64,000 bases of DNA, taken from positions 306,153 to 370,152 of the forward strand of contig ML996697.1 in the NCBI GenBank assembly GCA_010356995.1, written 5' to 3'. This document shows, one piece after another, positions 17,738-57,393 of this stretch. The notes beneath the pieces were generated by a model. That model saw nothing but the letters and a program-made list of their open reading frames with translations, was not told the DNA's origin and searched no databases. The translations under genes and the position numbers were made by a program. The stretch is from Trichodelitschia bisporula (Eukaryota). Numbering within the stretch: the first letter of the stretch is position 1; every line of letters begins with the position of its first letter.

Positions 17738-17947
17738 TTAGTCGGAGTCGGATGAGGAGGCGGTTGAGGAGGCGGTTGAGGATGGAGGCGAGGGATACAG
17801 GCACCCGTAGTTGCCCAGTAAGTTGACTACATCGGACTGGTAATCCGGACAGTACTGATATTGGCCGGTAGAACAGACATACTGCCATCCGGTGCCAGGT
17901 GCTTCGTGACCGCACTCGCTCCATATGACCCGTATGAACTCACACAT
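17738..17947 (-). CDS. Small Cys-rich protein (MC-x9-CGH type), 69 aa
   Basis: CAAAATG start context, TATAAAT on - at ~18091-18097, MCEFIRVIWSECGH...C...CP...GC. Confidence 0.6.
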   Translation of the reverse strand: MCEFIRVIWSECGHEAPGTGWQYVCSTGQYQYCPDYQSDVVNLLGNYGCLYPSPPSSTASSTASSSDSD

Positions 17948-49813: not shown

Positions 49814-50120
49814 GTCGGTGAAGTGATGAATGATGTGGGACTACTCCCTAGATGTGGGAAGAGATGTTCTTGATCTATGAAATGGAGGTTGGTCTAGCTT
49901 CGGGTGTTGGTTCAGCTGAGGCTGAGAGCATGTGAAAGGCGGTTGGGCTCAGCTGCCCCACCCATGCTAGTTTCCCCGCCATGCATAGTGTTGAGATGTC
50001 GTACTGTAGTACAGATTGAGTCTTTTGCTTCAACTTCGCTCCGCCTCAGTTGTCGTCTTTCAAACCGGATTGCAAGAGCTTGTATTTGGACCCTAAGGCT
50101 AGAGCTCCTCTCATCCAATT

Positions 50121-50192
50121 GGCCGTGTGGCGTAATGGCAACGCGTCTGACTACGAATCAGGAGATTGCAGGTTCGACCCCTGCCTCGGTCA
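50121..50192 (+). tRNA. tRNA-Arg(ACG)
   Basis: Cloverleaf; anticodon loop CTACGAA; GGTTCGACCC B-box. Confidence 0.95.
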
Positions 50193-50887
50193 TCTTCTTT
50201 TGCTCTTTGCACTTTTGGAGGTCTGAATTTGAGTCAGCGAAGGTTTGCGGGGTGTTCCTTGCTTTTTGCACGGTTCGGCCCGGTTCTTGAGCGATCTCGA
50301 TTCGGATTGGCGGGTCTCACTCCGCCAGCGCATCTCAACAGAACTCAGGATGCACACAAACCTTCGTTCCCTTTTGTTCCCTCAGTCTGATGTGTAGAGA
50401 CCTGCTAACTGATCTTACAGTCATGTCTCAGCCACTGTCTTCGGAGCTGGACGTCTTTGGGGTATAAACAGTCTTCACGCCGCTGCGACGGAGCCCGAGC
50501 TTCAGCTCCGCCAACCGCAACAGGTCATCCAGTACGCACCACCAACTCGTTCCAGGCCTATGTGACGATTATATATGCTTAATCCGAAGTTGAGCCGCAA
50601 CATACGCTATGCTGAGCTCCCGATCCCATCTCGACTCCGCGAGCTACCGTACAGCTGGAATATCTATCTTCATTTGGGCTCTCTTTGCTCTCCACACGTC
50701 TACCGCTCACTTCCGGGCGACATGGCGGTCAAGCCGCACAGCATTCTTCACAGACGTCACTCACTTCAAGGCATATGCACAAATCAGTAAAAGGGGATAG
50801 ATTCTTTAATCTACATTTCTCTCAGTATCCACAGCGTGGCGTGGAGTCTCATCTCGCTTGCCCAGGAGCATGTCCGCCAGAGACCCA

Positions 50888-51103
50888 TCAGTTCAACGGC
50901 TTGTAAGGCGGATTGCGGAGCGCGGTCTTCTCTGCCTTGAGACGACAGCCCAGGCAGTGCAGGGGCTTGTTGATCATCTCGAATGCAAGGAAGGCGTTCG
51001 GACACTTCTTGGGGCAACCAGGCGACTGCCGGGTCCAGATCATCTCCCTACACCCGCACTTCTGCCAGTAGATTTCCTGCTTGACGCAATCGCAACCGGC
51101 CAT
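50888..51103 (-). CDS. Cys-rich microprotein, family member A (71 aa)
   Basis: CAAAATGG start context; CDC-x9-CGC-x10-GC-x3-CPNA-x12-CLGC; TATAAA at 51271-51276 (-). Confidence 0.7.
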   Translation of the reverse strand: MAGCDCVKQEIYWQKCGCREMIWTRQSPGCPKKCPNAFLAFEMINKPLHCLGCRLKAEKTALRNPPYKPLN

Positions 51104-51972
51104 TTTGGATTATCAGAATTGGGGTATCGAAGGAGTTGGTGTGGAAGAGAATGGTTCGAAGACCGCTGTTCGGAGACTGGGTTTTGTAGGTTCTCTGTAG
51201 GTGGTACTGTGAGGCTGGAAAGCTTGCTTGTGAGGATGATGTATGGCCATGGGAGCCGCGATTCTGAGCCTTTATACCCTCACTCATGTGTCACAGGCTC
51301 GCTCAGTGACGATGAGCAACGTGCACGAGGCTTTGTGAGTACGGAAGAAGGTATCGTGGCTATTCGAATGAGCTAGTGATGGTGTTTGGTGTATAGTCCG
51401 CTAACAAGTGACAGCATCATTCATTGAGCTTGAGGTCTGACTGTGAGGAGTACCACCATGACCCCTACGACAGTTCGGAACCCCTTTAGAATCCGTCGAA
51501 CCATCATGTGCGTTATAATCGTCATGAGAGCGGCAGCCGCATCAACAGGACTCGGCCGGGAAACATCTCCAGCTTTATACGTCCCGGCCGTCACTGGGCA
51601 CGATGACTGCTTTTTTGGGGTCATCCCCAGCGCAGGCTCCATAAACCGTCTGACGGCGTCGAAGTCTGCTCTCAAGCAACTTGATGGCTACAGCATAAGC
51701 GGTCTCCGGGGCGTAAGGTTCCGTGATGAAACAGATATCATCGCCCTAACTAACATAGAATCGCAGTTTAAAATCCGCACCGGATATCGGAGGGATTCAC
51801 CGAGTGTACACTTTGCGTCCGATAGGAGGACTTTCCACCGCACAGCACCGCAATATTCTCGTCTTCACATTCAAAGGCACAAGATACTCGATAAGCCACC
51901 CCGCAAAAAACCGTGCGAAGCATTCATTTCTTTATTTCAAACCCATTTGCCAACTTACCAGTTTAGCCCTTA

Positions 51973-52481
51973 TCAGCACTGGCCCTTCCTCCGCTTCTTC
52001 TTCGCCAGATCCTTGAGACGCTTCTTGAGGAGCTCCTTGGCTTCCTATTCTTCATGCCGCTGCCATGACATCAGCGTTGAAGTGCACCCCTTTATGCGAG
52101 CTTACAAAATATAACAGAATGGTCGGATCCGGGAATGTGATCTCCGATCTGTCCCAATCGACCCCATCCTACTCTCTCCTGCTCTTCGGTCTCCGGTTCA
52201 TCCAGACTGCCCTCGGTCTCGGCCTATTTGTATGCGAGATCAAGATTGGTCCCAGGGCGAAGGTTTCTCCCGTGCTTTTCGCACACATCTCTCCTCCTAG
52301 AAAACACCCTCACCCTTGCATTCCGATAGGGGCCCGAATGCCCCTTTTCCGTTCTAAGTTGTGGCCATTGGGCGCAGCCGCATCGTAAAGTGAAGTGGGC
52401 CCGAACACATTTGCGAGAACCGGAGGTTTCTCCTGCGGGAGTGCTGGGCGGACTCTCTCACTCTTCGACGAATTCTACCAT
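51973..52481 (-). pseudogene. Degenerate Cys-rich microprotein paralog, member B
   Basis: RKC-x8-CGCAQWPQLRTEKGH...YRNA...CEKH; in-frame TGA/TAG stops, a frameshift near 52170, intron ~52060-52105, ends KKKRRKGQC. Confidence 0.55.
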
Positions 52482-53969
52482 CTTGGAGGGATGTGGTCTA
52501 GAACTACGGATTAGCGATGCGTTACTTTAGGGGCGGCGGTGGACTAATGGATAAGTGATGGTACGAACTGGTTTGCGAAATGTGGATACGAGAGCGGCCA
52601 GCGGTTTCGTGAGAGCTTGGTTGATTTTCTGAGGCGGCAGTAGGTTCCACTGGCGATTGCTCACTAGCAATGGGGCAGGCTGAGGTGTGTTTTCGGCGAG
52701 TATGGAGCGGTGGCGTATGTGGCTGAGGCAGACTTCATTGGAGGCCGAGTCGTAGCAACGGGGGTGTATGCCCCTACGTATCGGCACGAGCGACAACATC
52801 CACAGTCTCCAAGGGCGACGCCAACTATACTGCCTACACTACTCGCAAGACTACCATGCGGCACTTCCTCGAACCCGCGCTACTCGAGATACCCGAAAAC
52901 GCAATCAACGCTGAGGAAGCCACCCGCGGCGGTAGAAAGCTGCTGAGGATGATGATGTCCAAGGTTATCGATCTCGAGCTTCAGTTTCTGAAGGACTGCA
53001 CAACCTCCGCCAGTCCGAACTCCCTTTCCATACATCTCGTATCCTGGGAACTGAGTTCGAACTCTCTCAGCGGATCCGACGGCCTGGCGACAGCAGTCAT
53101 ACTCATCAGATCGTGGGTGAGGGAGCGAATGAAATCTCCCCCGTCTCCTTTCTCACACTTAAGGAAGAACCTCCCCCTTCCTGTCGTTGTTCTCGCTTTA
53201 ACCCTCTTCTCCTAGCCGCTAGCACAGCAAAAACACCTTTGATTCATATCACTCAGTGCACCATTTTGACCATGTGACAGAGCTTTTCCCGGGGAAGTAC
53301 TAGTTTCGTCCCAAATAGCAGTTAGCTGTCGCTGAATGTTTCCGGGTCACATTATATCCACATGAAAATGACTACTGCTGTCCAAGCAGCGGCAGCCATT
53401 TAGGGCACTCAGCACAAAGGCGCCATCAAACCGAATACAAAGCTATTGTTCTCGTCTCAACCTTGGAATATGGCCAGTGACATGCCTCGAATGATCCAAA
53501 CTCCAACACACGGTGTGCCCGGAGGAGATGGGCCTTACTCTCTCACAAAAAATGCGACGAGACCAGCTGTCTGCTTCCAGCCGAAAACTGCACCGATCGC
53601 CAGTTTACGGATCCCGCCAACCTGTGAAGAGTCGCCTTTCTCATCGGATCCCGGACATCACTAGGATCGATCAGTCACTGTTTACGTTCTGTCACATTGA
53701 CTTCATTCCACCTCACTCTGGACGATGAAGGTGTTCGTGATAAACTCCAGCCTTCACAAAACATTTGTATACCCTCACAACCTGTATATGCATCGTAGCT
53801 CTATAATGTCTATATCTCCCCTACAGAAATAACCACCATCTCCTCCACCTCCACCTTCATCTTTACTAACCACGTCCGCCCTGGCTTCCCTTATTCACTC
53901 TCACCTTTACCAATCACCTCTGCCCTGGAGTCCCCTTCTTCACCTTCACCTTTACCAAACACTTCTAGC

Positions 53970-54302
53970 ATGGAGTCACTTCTCTTGCAGCAAGATCAAA
54001 TCGATCTTGCTCAACCTGAAACCTGCGACTGCTACAAGTATCTTTTGAAATGGGCTTGTGGCTGCTGGGATCATAGGCAGCTCACCGCCGAGGAGGGCCA
54101 CAACGACCGTGACTGCCCTACCGCGCATGTGAACGAAACGGCAGTGTGTCTTAACAATCCTTGCTCGGGCTGTCAATCCTTCAGGAAAATCGTTCGGGCG
54201 AAGAATTGTAAAGGGAGCGGGCTGGGCGCGAAGAAGTCGAAGATGGCCAAATATGACTTGGCTGAAAAAATCAGCGAAGGTGTGAGGAATTGTGATCGTT
54301 GA
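53970..54302 (+). CDS. Cys-rich microprotein, family member C (110 aa)
   Basis: CDC-x8-CGC...QLTAEEGH...CPTA-x12-CSGC plus a basic tail; TATAA at 53802. Confidence 0.7.
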   Translation: MESLLLQQDQIDLAQPETCDCYKYLLKWACGCWDHRQLTAEEGHNDRDCPTAHVNETAVCLNNPCSGCQSFRKIVRAKNCKGSGLGAKKSKMAKYDLAEKISEGVRNCDR

Positions 54303-54320
54303 GCGGATATAGGAGACTTG

Positions 54321-54447
54321 CAGCCTAGTTCGGGATCAATCGGTGACGCGGAAACAGATCTTCTCGACTGCGCTGTGCTACATGATATTTACAGCCCCTA
54401 GTTCGGGATCGATCAGTGATGCCGTAAACCGATCTGCTCGACTGCGC
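54321..54447. repeat. Imperfect ~55-bp direct repeat (54321-54373 / 54392-54447)
   Basis: CCTAGTTCGGGATC...CTCGACTGCGC occurs twice. Confidence 0.8.
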
Positions 54448-55499
54448 GAAAGCCGCACATCAGTATCATCGGTATGCCCAAGGACATACCAGCAGCAGCT
54501 AGAAGCCAGAACATAATTAAAAGTAAGATTCTTACCTTACCGAATCTCAAAGTGCCGGGCCAGACTTTGAAGTGACATGCGGGGCCTAAATGCAACCCTT
54601 AGCCATAGACCAGCCTCGTGCCGAAGTGAATCCTAAGCAAGTCGCCGACACCCATTCGTACAAGCTCTCCGAGTTCCATTCGCAGCCCAAACCCTCTACC
54701 CAGCCCCGATACATCTTTACGGTACCCTAGTAGGCCAACTAGACAAAAGACGCTTCCTTGGCCGCTCCAGCACTTGGTATACTCAACCTTCCCTCGGTCG
54801 CTCTTCCGCCCAGTGCAGCCTCATCCGAAACCAGCTCAAGCACATCGCCGGACTTGTCAGTAATTGATTCATCGATTTGAATGGTATCGAATGTGCGCCG
54901 AGCTAATGCTCTTCGGTTTTAGGAAGTTCGTGATCTTTGGCGTGGTGTTTACTGCTAGCGCGGCCTCTGATTAGCTAGCCCTACCGTGGCGTGCGCGGCT
55001 TCCCCACAATACCCCGGTCTGCCCTCGCCGCATCCTGAGCTCGGGATTCACCTTTGAGTGTCGAACGGTCTTCTCTAGATCGAGTGAAGATATCATATTT
55101 GGACATTGATCACATCCTAGGAGTCCATCGGTAGACTTAATGGATGACGGCAATTCATTCATTACTACTGTCGCGTCTGCACCTGGCGCAATCTTTAGGC
55201 GAAACGATCCGAACGTTATCAGGCCCCATCACTGTCTACACTTTTATCTCAGCCGGTCTCATCTCACCTAACTATGGACTTCATAGACGTTCGCAATGCG
55301 CTCAAATCACGAAATGTAAATAAACCCTCACAAGACGTTAGTTCCATTACACCCTCACAACTCACAAAGCATACGTACACCTACACAAGACGTTAGTACA
55401 CCCTCACAAGCAGTACGTAAATCCCAACTATAAATGTCTGTATCACTCACTGTAATAGCCGTCTTTACATTCACCTTCACCTCCGCCATTACTCCAGCC

Positions 55500-55755
55500 A
55501 TGAAATTCTCCGATATTGTCGCCGTGGAAGGCACTTGCAGCTGCAGAAAGACAGCTGTGATATTCACCTGCGGGCACAGGTGGTACAATCAGGGGACCAC
55601 TGCCCCTGGCCACCCCAACGAGCTGTCCCACCGCGTTGATCTTCACAGAGCTGCTCGAGAGTCCGGAAACCTGCTGGGATTGCCGGGCTCGAGAGGCTCG
55701 GAATCAGGTGAATAAGGACGGGAAGGATGGGAACGGGAGAAAGAAGGGTTGTTGA
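55500..55755 (+). pseudogene. Cys-rich microprotein, member D, with one extra base at ~55617
   Basis: CSC-x8-CGH...PGHP/shift/CPTA-x12-CWDC...RKKGC*; TATAAA at 55429. Confidence 0.65.
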
Positions 55756-57393
55756 AGCGGGTAACTGAAAAGAGAAAGGCAAGCGGAGCTGAAATGGGAA
55801 AGGGGAATGCTCCAGTGAAAGGAATTGATGTTTGCGGCCCCGGCTGGCAGTGAGCAGATGGCCAGTAGATGCGACGAGCTGGCTGGTGCACAAACGCGGT
55901 ATATCCGCATCACTGACATGCCCTGGGCAATAGCATCAGCACCCCGAACCGAAAGAAACCGCAACAGAACCTACCAGCAGCAGCCAAACACCCCCACCCC
56001 CCGTCCCCCCATCAACTAAAAAAAAGAATCAATTAACATTCTTACCATGCCAGGGACCTTGAAGTGACAAACCCCTTTGCAGTGAACGTGCCTGACCCAT
56101 CACAGCCTCGCGTCTCGCTCCGAAGCGAGCCCTAAGCGAGTTTACCGAGCCCGAGTCTGCGTCTAGGTCGCCCGACTCCCACTCGCGCACCGAACCACCG
56201 GCCCGGCTTCAACACCCTATTAGCATGCCGACCAGGCCGATAAGCTGACTGGGCCGTCCGAACACCACCAGAGCACACTCGGCCTCCGCCCGTCCCTCCG
56301 GTGTATTGTAGCACCACCCGAAATATGCTTTACGTGGTACGTCCTTCGCGCATCCCAAGGCGAAACGCGGCACACCAGCCCATCCACCAACCTTTCCCTC
56401 ATCACTCCACTCCCACTCCCGACCCAAACCTTCAACCCCTCAAACCCCATCACAAACCCCTCACCCGAAGGCAGTGCAGTAAGACCCCCTTACGCGGCCC
56501 AAGGGCCGCTGACTCCCTCGCCCATCTGTCCCGGATGACATCACGCGGCCTTGCGCCCCGAAAAAGAACCGGCACCGTCACACCCCTGCAACCGGAAGTC
56601 AGCCCTATGACCCTACCACCCAGTTCACGCCCACGCGCGCTGACGCACCGCCTCCCAAACCACCCACACCCCGTGCCCCGATACAAACCAGCGGAGCAAG
56701 TTCCTGGCTGCAGACTCGAACCCTGCATTCTTCAGGCTAGAGGTTGCACAATCAAGATTTGCACCCCATGCAAGCAGTGCAGCTCCCAAGATACCCTGAA
56801 GACACTCCCGTCGTCAGTGACTTCATCGGCGCGCGATAGAACCTCGGGAATCGGGTCGAGGACCGGAATGACGCTTCCACAAGTCGCATTGCCGCAAGAT
56901 TTCACAATCAAGCAAAGCATGATGATTCAACAGCGTCGTCATTGACAATGACTATGACTCTCCACACACTATCCGTGCCTAAGCCCAAGTCCCGTAACCC
57001 GTCAGTCGGATACGGACTGACCTTCCCAAGCCGGAAGCACCCCTTCAGCCTCAAGCAGCCTTCCATCAACAGGTACCATAGCGCAGAAATGCCCAGACCA
57101 CTCAAAAGAAAAGGTCGTCAATTCAGTAATGCCTCCGAAACCGAATGCAAGTGCGCAACAAACTGTGCAGGTGATACCGCCATATTCCCCTTAAAAGTGG
57201 ATAGCACGACAACCGACCACCCGAAAAATATAGTGCCTCTCGCAAACGCACACTCTACTGGCCTTGCCTCGCTGAGAAAATTGCCAGGAGGAAAGTCGCA
57301 GCGGGGCCAGCCGGGCAAGAAAATTTATACAAAAAAAGAAAAGCAGCGCAATGCAATGCCCACGCACCATGCATGCTTGAAGGGAAAACCACC

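Follow-up and report, generated by a model that had tools for sequence, protein, structure and literature searches.

A cluster of four Cys/His-rich microprotein genes in Trichodelitschia bisporula as a probable local variant of a larger Met-Cys family

Four short genes rich in cysteine and histidine, called A, B, C, and D, lie close together in a 64,000-nucleotide stretch of Trichodelitschia bisporula DNA (the window), on contig C11 of a 25.8-Mb assembly of 44 contigs. The locus raises the question of whether these genes form a microprotein system of their own, as the initial annotation proposed, and what their proteins might do. The motifs of A–D were found at the positions given there, and the genes do form a paralogous cluster, but the cluster is not self-contained. 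Judged by sequence, A–D are an offshoot of a large, uncatalogued fungal microprotein family with the pattern Met-Cys-x8-CGH...CxxC. This family occupies about 40 loci in the genome, gene E of the same window included, and A–D are a local variant of it. All within-genome comparisons concern this one genome, in which loci carry working numbers (L).

Family membership of the four copies

A search of the genome for ATG-Cys-x7/9-CGH gave 52 matches, compared with 1 in the control. The DNA was examined for 51 of these 52 and yielded 42 in-frame starts, two of which were dropped from the promoter tests as probable chance matches. The start-blind pattern C-x8-CGH-x8-C gave 32 matches, compared with 2 in the control. 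Directly after an ATG stood 23 of them, two followed an ACG and kept the CxxC, and seven lacked the rest of the motif and resemble chance. All 25 genuine start-blind matches had their first Cys at position 2, and none of the four copies A–D did. Because their Cys does not directly follow the start Met, A–D are classed as a variant and not as canonical members. The two matches with ACG at the start-ATG site, L204:1219 (+) and L211:1086 (-), lie beside intact members and are either dead copies or genes with non-AUG starts.

Profile-profile alignment (hhalign) of A–D with 27 canonical members gave a probability of 83.9% and an E-value of 7.7e-6. A hidden Markov model (HMM) was built from 33 members, excluding A–D and including gene E, after 11 truncated or atypical rows had been dropped. 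It placed the C-half of D (Dc), the N-half of D (Dn), C, and A at ranks 2, 3, 4, and 6 of the 1340 open reading frames (ORFs) of the window, with E-values of 0.05–0.16, and B at an E-value of 3. The score of A was reached by 5 of 2000 shuffles and that of C by none of 2000.

The C-x8/9-CG[HC] knuckle is present in all four copies, and the C-terminal CxxC is present in A, C, and D. L035, a canonical member, shares H-x3-CPTA-x12-CxxC with the cluster, and CGC forms of the knuckle occur among Met-Cys members. The likeness extends to the CxxC before a helix, the predicted topology, tandem arrays with dead copies, and TATA promoters. In contrast, A–D carry an N-terminal extension, their core starts with CxC, and a G-[CH] at 11 residues past the knuckle replaces the family Cys at 8. 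In the family, a Cys lies 7–10 residues past the knuckle in 36 of 42 members (at exactly 8 in 27). Seven ligand positions are retained in the family consensus. A, C, and D have 5 to 20 residues ahead of the equivalent of the first Cys, and an extra Cys two residues upstream of it forms the CxC, resulting in eight ligands. The N-extended CxC variant and the position-2 Cys rule of the canonical family are new here.

A start-anchored pattern would miss N-extended members such as A, C, and D. The genome pattern CxC-x8/9-CG[CH]-x10-G[CH] returned these three together with 10 low-complexity or chance-like matches (four of the ten inspected in their loci). A looser pattern was uninformative, with 800 matches against 534 in the control. 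A family of about 40 loci in one 26-Mb genome is mostly missed by gene callers, as 1 of 10 looked-up proteins was in the protein collection, and no Pfam entry or solved structure was found for it. Gene A, in a 70-aa form, is a called gene in that collection (P0001). Gene E is a paralog of L036 (G000:C7). Two members, L201:754 (+) and L039:1501 (+), resemble small proteins that we take to be conserved across filamentous ascomycetes. They look single-copy, one of them has CGC, and they are candidates for ancestral, studyable forms of the family.

The family had not been recognised at first sight, and the searches agree with this. No Pfam family matched A or C at an E-value of 1, and none matched A–D. 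Word searches outside the genome returned only the query itself for A and for the A–D alignment, and nothing for the canonical L035. HMMER over 1.84 billion representatives returned the query and three repeat proteins without the Cys pattern. In the ESM Atlas, gene A gave three Ascomycota clusters named 'hypothetical' (66–82 aa, 0.88–0.89, recognition 2066), which are a lead only, and the core of C gave no named cluster. A metagenome scan with the fixed-spacing A–D pattern listed at least 120 matches (at least 26 without a stop); none of the matches listed was family-like, and at least 11 of them had C/H at both ligands. A search of metagenomes for synteny through DUF2457 found none. A PDB sequence search with the family profile returned only weak C2H2 repeats and eS26. 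The literature search found no paper describing the family, although supplementary gene tables could list members and subscription journals were thinly covered.

Organization, decay, and duplication of the cluster

The cluster is bounded by a tRNA-Arg gene (50120–50194) on one side and the 3' end of a DUF2457 gene (57394) on the other. Spliceosomal introns and DUF2457, bHLH, and Hydrolase_4 genes are found around it and mark the window as DNA of a filamentous fungus. A and B point leftward, and C and D point rightward (<-A <-B, C-> D->). The cluster was initially described as two divergent pairs, but it consists of two tandem pairs that flank one divergent junction. The features are as follows.

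50120..50194, + strand: tRNA-Arg(ACG), left border
50332..53232, + strand: spliced RNA antisense to A and B, five GT..AG joints
50888..51103, - strand: gene A, intact 71-aa ORF, eight Cys ligand positions, GC content at third codon positions (GC3) 0.79
51209..51448, - strand: A promoter region, TATAAA at -173, CCTCAC at -111, -132, and -345
51973..52481, - strand: pseudogene B, lacking two ligands, with stops at 52460, 52226, and further on
53553..53664, + strand: AWS/SET-domain gene fragment, decayed 75%-identical copy of a piece of L186 (G000:C17)
53751..53867, + strand: C promoter block, with CCCTCACAA and TATAATGTC, homologous to 55380-55493
53970..54302, + strand: gene C, intact 110-aa ORF, C4HC3 ligand order, basic tail
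54480..54800, + strand: non-coding block downstream of C, homologous to 55960-56300
54920..55064, + strand: copy of a G000:C5 stretch (L185), 73% identical, between the C and D units
55326..55493, + strand: D promoter block, three CCCTCACAA, TATAAATGTC at -71
55448..56416, - strand: spliced RNA antisense to D, CT..AC joints 55921-55974 and 56015-56073
55500..55755, + strand: pseudogene D, eight ligand codons all kept, frame break between 55611 and 55624
55960..56300, + strand: non-coding block downstream of D, homologous to the block following C
17738..17947, - strand: gene E, Met-Cys family member of 69 aa, outside the cluster in the same window

The C-x8/9-CG[CH] motif occurs four times in the 7.1 kb from 50200 to 57300, while 1000 dinucleotide shuffles gave a mean of 0.106 and a maximum of 2. 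Pairwise similarity was tested by Smith-Waterman alignment with 2000 shuffles. The real score was reached by 0 shuffles for A-C, 1 for A-Dc, 1 for C-Dn, 7 for C-B, 29 for A-Dn, and 45 for B-Dn. Similarity was weak or absent for C-Dc (129), A-B (202), and B-Dc (1947). Paralogy is clear for A-C, A-D, and C-D and modest for C-B, and the A-B pair is not significant. The birth-and-death turnover proposed for the cluster is supported by two intact copies (A and C) and two broken ones (B and D).

Read from ATG 55500, D carries its N-half (CSC..CGH..GH, His codon at 55611) and its C-half (CPTA at 55624 through CWDC, stop at 55755) in different frames. Read from ATG 52481, B is interrupted by stops at codon 8 (52460), at codon 86 (52226), and further on, and its basic tail near 51973 is reached only in another frame. 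B has R-K-C instead of CxC, Tyr at ligand 6, x11 instead of x12, and CEKH in place of the terminal CxxC. Its stops and two lost ligands bear out its description as degenerate. The consensus spacing proposed earlier holds as a motif, but each of the four copies has 11 where "x10/11" was given between ligands 4 and 5, and B departs from the consensus at x12.

The breaks were checked in contigs from two DNA runs and two spliced RNA runs, which represent two samples, one of them possibly the source of the assembly. None of the listed datasets is on record as RNA; the RNA runs are the spliced ones. No substitutions or indels are listed at the cluster in the four contig sets, and RNA contigs cross the D break and the B stops ungapped. 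The breaks in B and D are therefore unlikely to be assembly errors. An intron was rejected as an explanation of the D break, since the 43-nt candidate has a poor donor, branch, and acceptor and the RNA contigs cross it ungapped. Dinucleotide indices did not support repeat-induced point mutation as the cause of B decay.

B finds support outside the cluster in a B-like 68-nt piece on contig C8 (L187), with 87% identity over 53 nt and C-K-C-x8-CGC where B has R-K-C. The piece is best read as a captured older copy, because the locus is a patchwork in which it directly adjoins, without a gap, a piece from another dispersed family; the substitutions in it alone do not tell which frame was selected. 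L187 (G000:C8:742544-745596) is a mosaic of the B-like piece, a piece common to L213/L214, and a piece common to L215, and it suggests a fragment-capturing process in this genome. In the cluster, the AWS/SET fragment (histone-methyltransferase-like) sits immediately upstream of the C promoter. The description of the cluster as an "accessory island" is unproven, but the interval does collect fragments. Its GC content is 0.51–0.53 against 0.57 overall, and the stretches at 16–19 kb and 38–41 kb are equally low.

Tandem duplication of a unit of about 1.5 kb, flanks included, produced C and D. Their promoter blocks are 69% identical over 117 nt (E-value 6e-5), and they also match in blocks 180–500 nt downstream. 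The alignment z-scores were 12.1 and 9.2 for the flanks, the upstream block having an inflated score because it was chosen as the best local match, and 4.1 for the coding core. Gapped percent identities of the flanks were set aside in favour of z-scores because shuffles gave 0.62–0.65. Two 51-nt direct repeats (86%) at 54324–54447 come straight after the C stop codon. Between C and D, 8 of 8 ligand positions remain C or H, and 7 of 39 other residues are identical. The ligands are all kept among A, C, and D at a proportion of synonymous differences (pS) of 0.6–0.76. The label "fast-evolving" fits as quick divergence between fixed C/H positions.

A fixed scaffold, variable loops, and high turnover would also be expected of conflict genes under diversifying selection, acting in self/non-self recognition, as antidotes, or against parasites. 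Flanks better kept than the coding core, as in C/D and some other pairs (L056 5855/6278, flanks z 14.4 vs coding 2.9), point the same way. Against this, the flanks were not better kept in most of 28 other family pairs, and no meaningful omega (nonsynonymous/synonymous ratio) above 1 was found, the two closest family pairs giving 0.28 and 0.23. No linked toxin, HET, or NLR gene was seen in the cluster, and a conflict role is improbable.

Promoters and RNA over the cluster

In genes A, C, D, and E, a TATA box lies 71–173 nt before the ATG, accompanied by two to four CCTCAC copies. B has no TATAA or CCTCAC in the 400 nt upstream. Upstream of A, C, and D lie five of the seven CCTCACAA of the window; among 3000 triplets drawn at random, 2 had a 7-mer in common at six or more copies, a comparison weakened by the fact that C and D share CCTCACAA through duplication. 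The gene E promoter has four 21-nt tandem repeats with CCCTCAC and a TATAAATGTC box like that of D. Twelve motifs were tested across the family, with uncorrected p-values and crude controls. TATA[AT]A was found in 19 of 40 family upstream regions vs 4 of 34 control regions, CTCACA in 16 of 40 vs 5 of 34 (p 0.015), and CCTCAC in 13 of 40 vs 7 of 34 (p 0.19). CCTCAC was rejected as a family-wide element, being weak against other upstream regions. A sigma-70 scan was at chance level and is not relevant to a fungus.

With regard to transcription, spliced RNA is present over A, B, and D, but its readable direction is antisense. Over A and B, the plus-strand GT..AG joints lie at 50531-50590, 51240-51297, 51348-51413, 51712-51767, and 51912-51967 and may belong to more than one transcript, and one antisense intron spans the A TATA box. 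The contigs reveal strand through splice joints only, not level, so that they speak neither for nor against sense transcription. In the two spliced runs, 53416-54920 (C included) is uncovered, and depth in contigs does not rank genes; both points were left out of the evidence. According to the available part of PMC8893723, antisense RNA turns over fast in fungi and young genes tolerate expression noise, so the antisense RNA over the cluster need not be regulatory. An RNA joint at 55325-55448, seen in both RNA runs and without canonical intron ends, skips the D promoter repeats. Two plus-strand ORFs lie inside the antisense RNA. The first (51458-52114, 218 aa) has two in-frame 54-nt introns and no Pfam match. 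The second (52856-53215, 119 aa) has no Pfam match and no paralog in the genome.

These data also bear on the proposal that the whole cluster consists of functionless relics in an intergenic stretch that gathers fragments, with A and C simply still unbroken and the antisense RNA amounting to noise. Two of the four copies are broken, the cluster contains captured pieces from other loci, no homologue was found outside the genome, and C/D omega is near 1. Antisense splicing over A, B, and D would suit relics as well, given the young-gene noise and fast antisense turnover covered in the same part of PMC8893723. In contrast, the ligands are all kept among A, C, and D despite their divergence, and gene A has its high GC3 at a GC of 0.58. 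In addition, intact TATA/CCTCAC promoters are found on A, C, and D and not on B, the most decayed copy. The proposal is considered unlikely.

Predicted fold and proposed metal binding

The initial annotation saw no signal peptide, and a rough hydropathy test agrees, with maxima over 11 residues of 0.24 for A and 0.36 for C. For D the maximum is 1.01 from 55500; the in-frame ATG 55434 would give 2.37 but abuts the TATA box. The AlphaFold2 model of L035, built with 27 rows, had a predicted local distance difference test (pLDDT) score of 81.9 and the elements E2-8, E14-20, E37-43, and H49-52. In this model the chain forms a hairpin that turns at CGH, adds a third strand, and places CxxC where the helix begins. 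The model of the C core (pLDDT 68.4; E6-11, E17-23, E37-44, H50-60) has the same elements.

Fold searches with both models gave nothing at Z 5 or a Foldseek E-value of 0.001 and exclude no family. The recurring weak rows (Z 2.0–2.8, Foldseek E-value 0.5–5, root-mean-square deviation 3.9–6.6) were ribosomal chains, which we take from their labels and lengths to be bL31, and the Fur/PerR zinc site. Like both models, these modules run strand, CxC knuckle, strand, strand, CxxC, helix. They differ in having one metal site only, and the similarity is not significant (Z at most 2.8, Foldseek E-value at least 0.5). The RanBP2-type zinc finger (PF00641) did not match A or C, and 1 of 13 family members reached an E-value of 0.017 over 14 residues, below the cut-off. 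With RING (C3HC4), RING-CH/RINGv, and PHD (C4HC3) domains, A, C, and D share eight ligands in four pairs, C being C4HC3, and a second pair, C-x-[HC], that would partner the last CxxC as in a cross-brace. Compared with the canonical RING/PHD spacings, the first pair has x1 and not x2, 11 residues separate ligands 4 and 5, and x3/4 separates ligands 5 and 6. A–D also differ in having no Pfam match and a long hairpin topology.

Metal binding by A–D is plausible. In the reading preferred here, A–D would be a locally duplicated, partly dead sub-clade of an intracellular two-metal, amine-ligand microprotein family, likely a small binding module, and the chances of its being right are about even. The core of about 50 residues would bind two metal ions, most likely Zn, in a cross-brace suggested by the predicted topology. 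Site 2 would be formed by the CG[HC] knuckle at the hairpin turn and the CxxC at the helix start, and site 1 by ligands at the open hairpin end. N-terminal Met is removed before Cys. In canonical members, the alpha-amine of Cys2 thus freed would be the eighth ligand beside the seven side-chain ligands. In A, C, and D, the extension would cost the amine, and the extra Cys two residues upstream would stand in for it. The metal would fix the scaffold while exposed residues change quickly. Expression would come from the TATA/CCTCAC promoter in some restricted state, with new copies coming from local duplication and frameshifts or nonsense changes putting an end to them.

A chemical precedent is the CxxCGC motif of E. 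coli HypB, in which, according to the available part of PMC12284835, the N-terminal amine binds nickel with Cys2, Cys5, and Cys7. The likeness lies in a Cys2 amine that binds metal together with thiolates. HypB differs in its metal, nickel, and in that the site lies on a disordered extension of a GTPase, and homology is not claimed.

The strict Met-Cys start might instead be a targeting or degradation signal, with one Zn at CGH/CxxC and the CxC of A–D incidental. Met-Cys starts serve as acylation or N-degron signals elsewhere, and the weak fold similarities are to one-zinc modules. However, the spacing between Cys2 and the knuckle is fixed at x8/9, and Cys2 faces the invariant Cys22 where the hairpin opens. 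In A–D the equivalent Cys is retained at an internal site, from which an N-terminal signal could not act, and a signal role is highly improbable.

Several points weigh against the two-metal, amine-ligand reading. A second HMM (27 rows) ranks Dn and C at 2 and 3 but A and Dc at 9 and 11. The alignment behind the C model has 7 family rows among its 12 and biases the model to the family fold, and the other four models of C scored 51–59. The pairing of ligands is deduced from topology. The extra Cys might replace the family Cys at 8 past the knuckle, which A–D lack, and the CxC gain is one evolutionary event in one clade. Two or three middle-segment C/H are found in 16 of 27 complete members and could supply an eighth ligand without the amine. 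The proportions of nonsynonymous and synonymous differences for C/D (pN/pS 0.51/0.59; omega 0.75, or 1.34 without ligand codons) are near saturation and prove neither purifying nor positive selection. The readable RNA over A, B, and D comes from one RNA sample and runs antisense. Among haloarchaeal C(P)XCG microproteins (Haloferax), 5 of 14 tested were without zinc, as given in the available part of PMC11241148. Compared by description from the same part of PMC11241148, this is also a large family of tiny stand-alone Cys-motif proteins whose metal content is not predictable from the motif, with another motif and in another domain of life.

In a bolder and somewhat unlikely form of the proposal, the family would be an undescribed two-zinc fold that uses its own N-terminal amine, and the amine-to-Cys swap of A–D would have released the domain from the N-terminus. 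The copies would serve as fast-diversifying binding modules inside the cell, with spliced antisense RNA over their loci. The amine as a ligand would explain a module locked to position 2 in dozens of fungal genes, and the antisense overlay may keep copies off outside one stage. A–D offer a built-in test of metal binding in the family. The gain from their locus alone is moderate and would be larger if the amine-ligand reading were true.

The likeliest job of the module would be to bind a protein or nucleic-acid partner, given a scaffold that stays fixed beneath a variable surface, the basic tails, and the occurrence of the module at the N-terminus of longer proteins. A role as metal buffer or sensor of metallothionein type, in which the metal is cargo and not structural support, would suit small intracellular proteins with C/H interchange at ligands, hypervariable spacers, and promoters rich in TATA across the family. 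Metallothioneins are Cys-dense and unfolded. Gene A is unlike them, since its 71 aa contain 8 Cys and are predicted to fold into a sheet. A modular scaffold agrees better with a set of about 40 diverged paralogs, some of which are N-terminal domains of proteins of 150–300 aa, and buffering or sensing is decidedly unlikely. The module heads longer proteins of 149–300+ aa at L032:1501 (+), L030, L031, L038, L043, and L046. In L032, a weak UIM match (E-value 0.1) follows the module, and L031 apparently has a second partial module.

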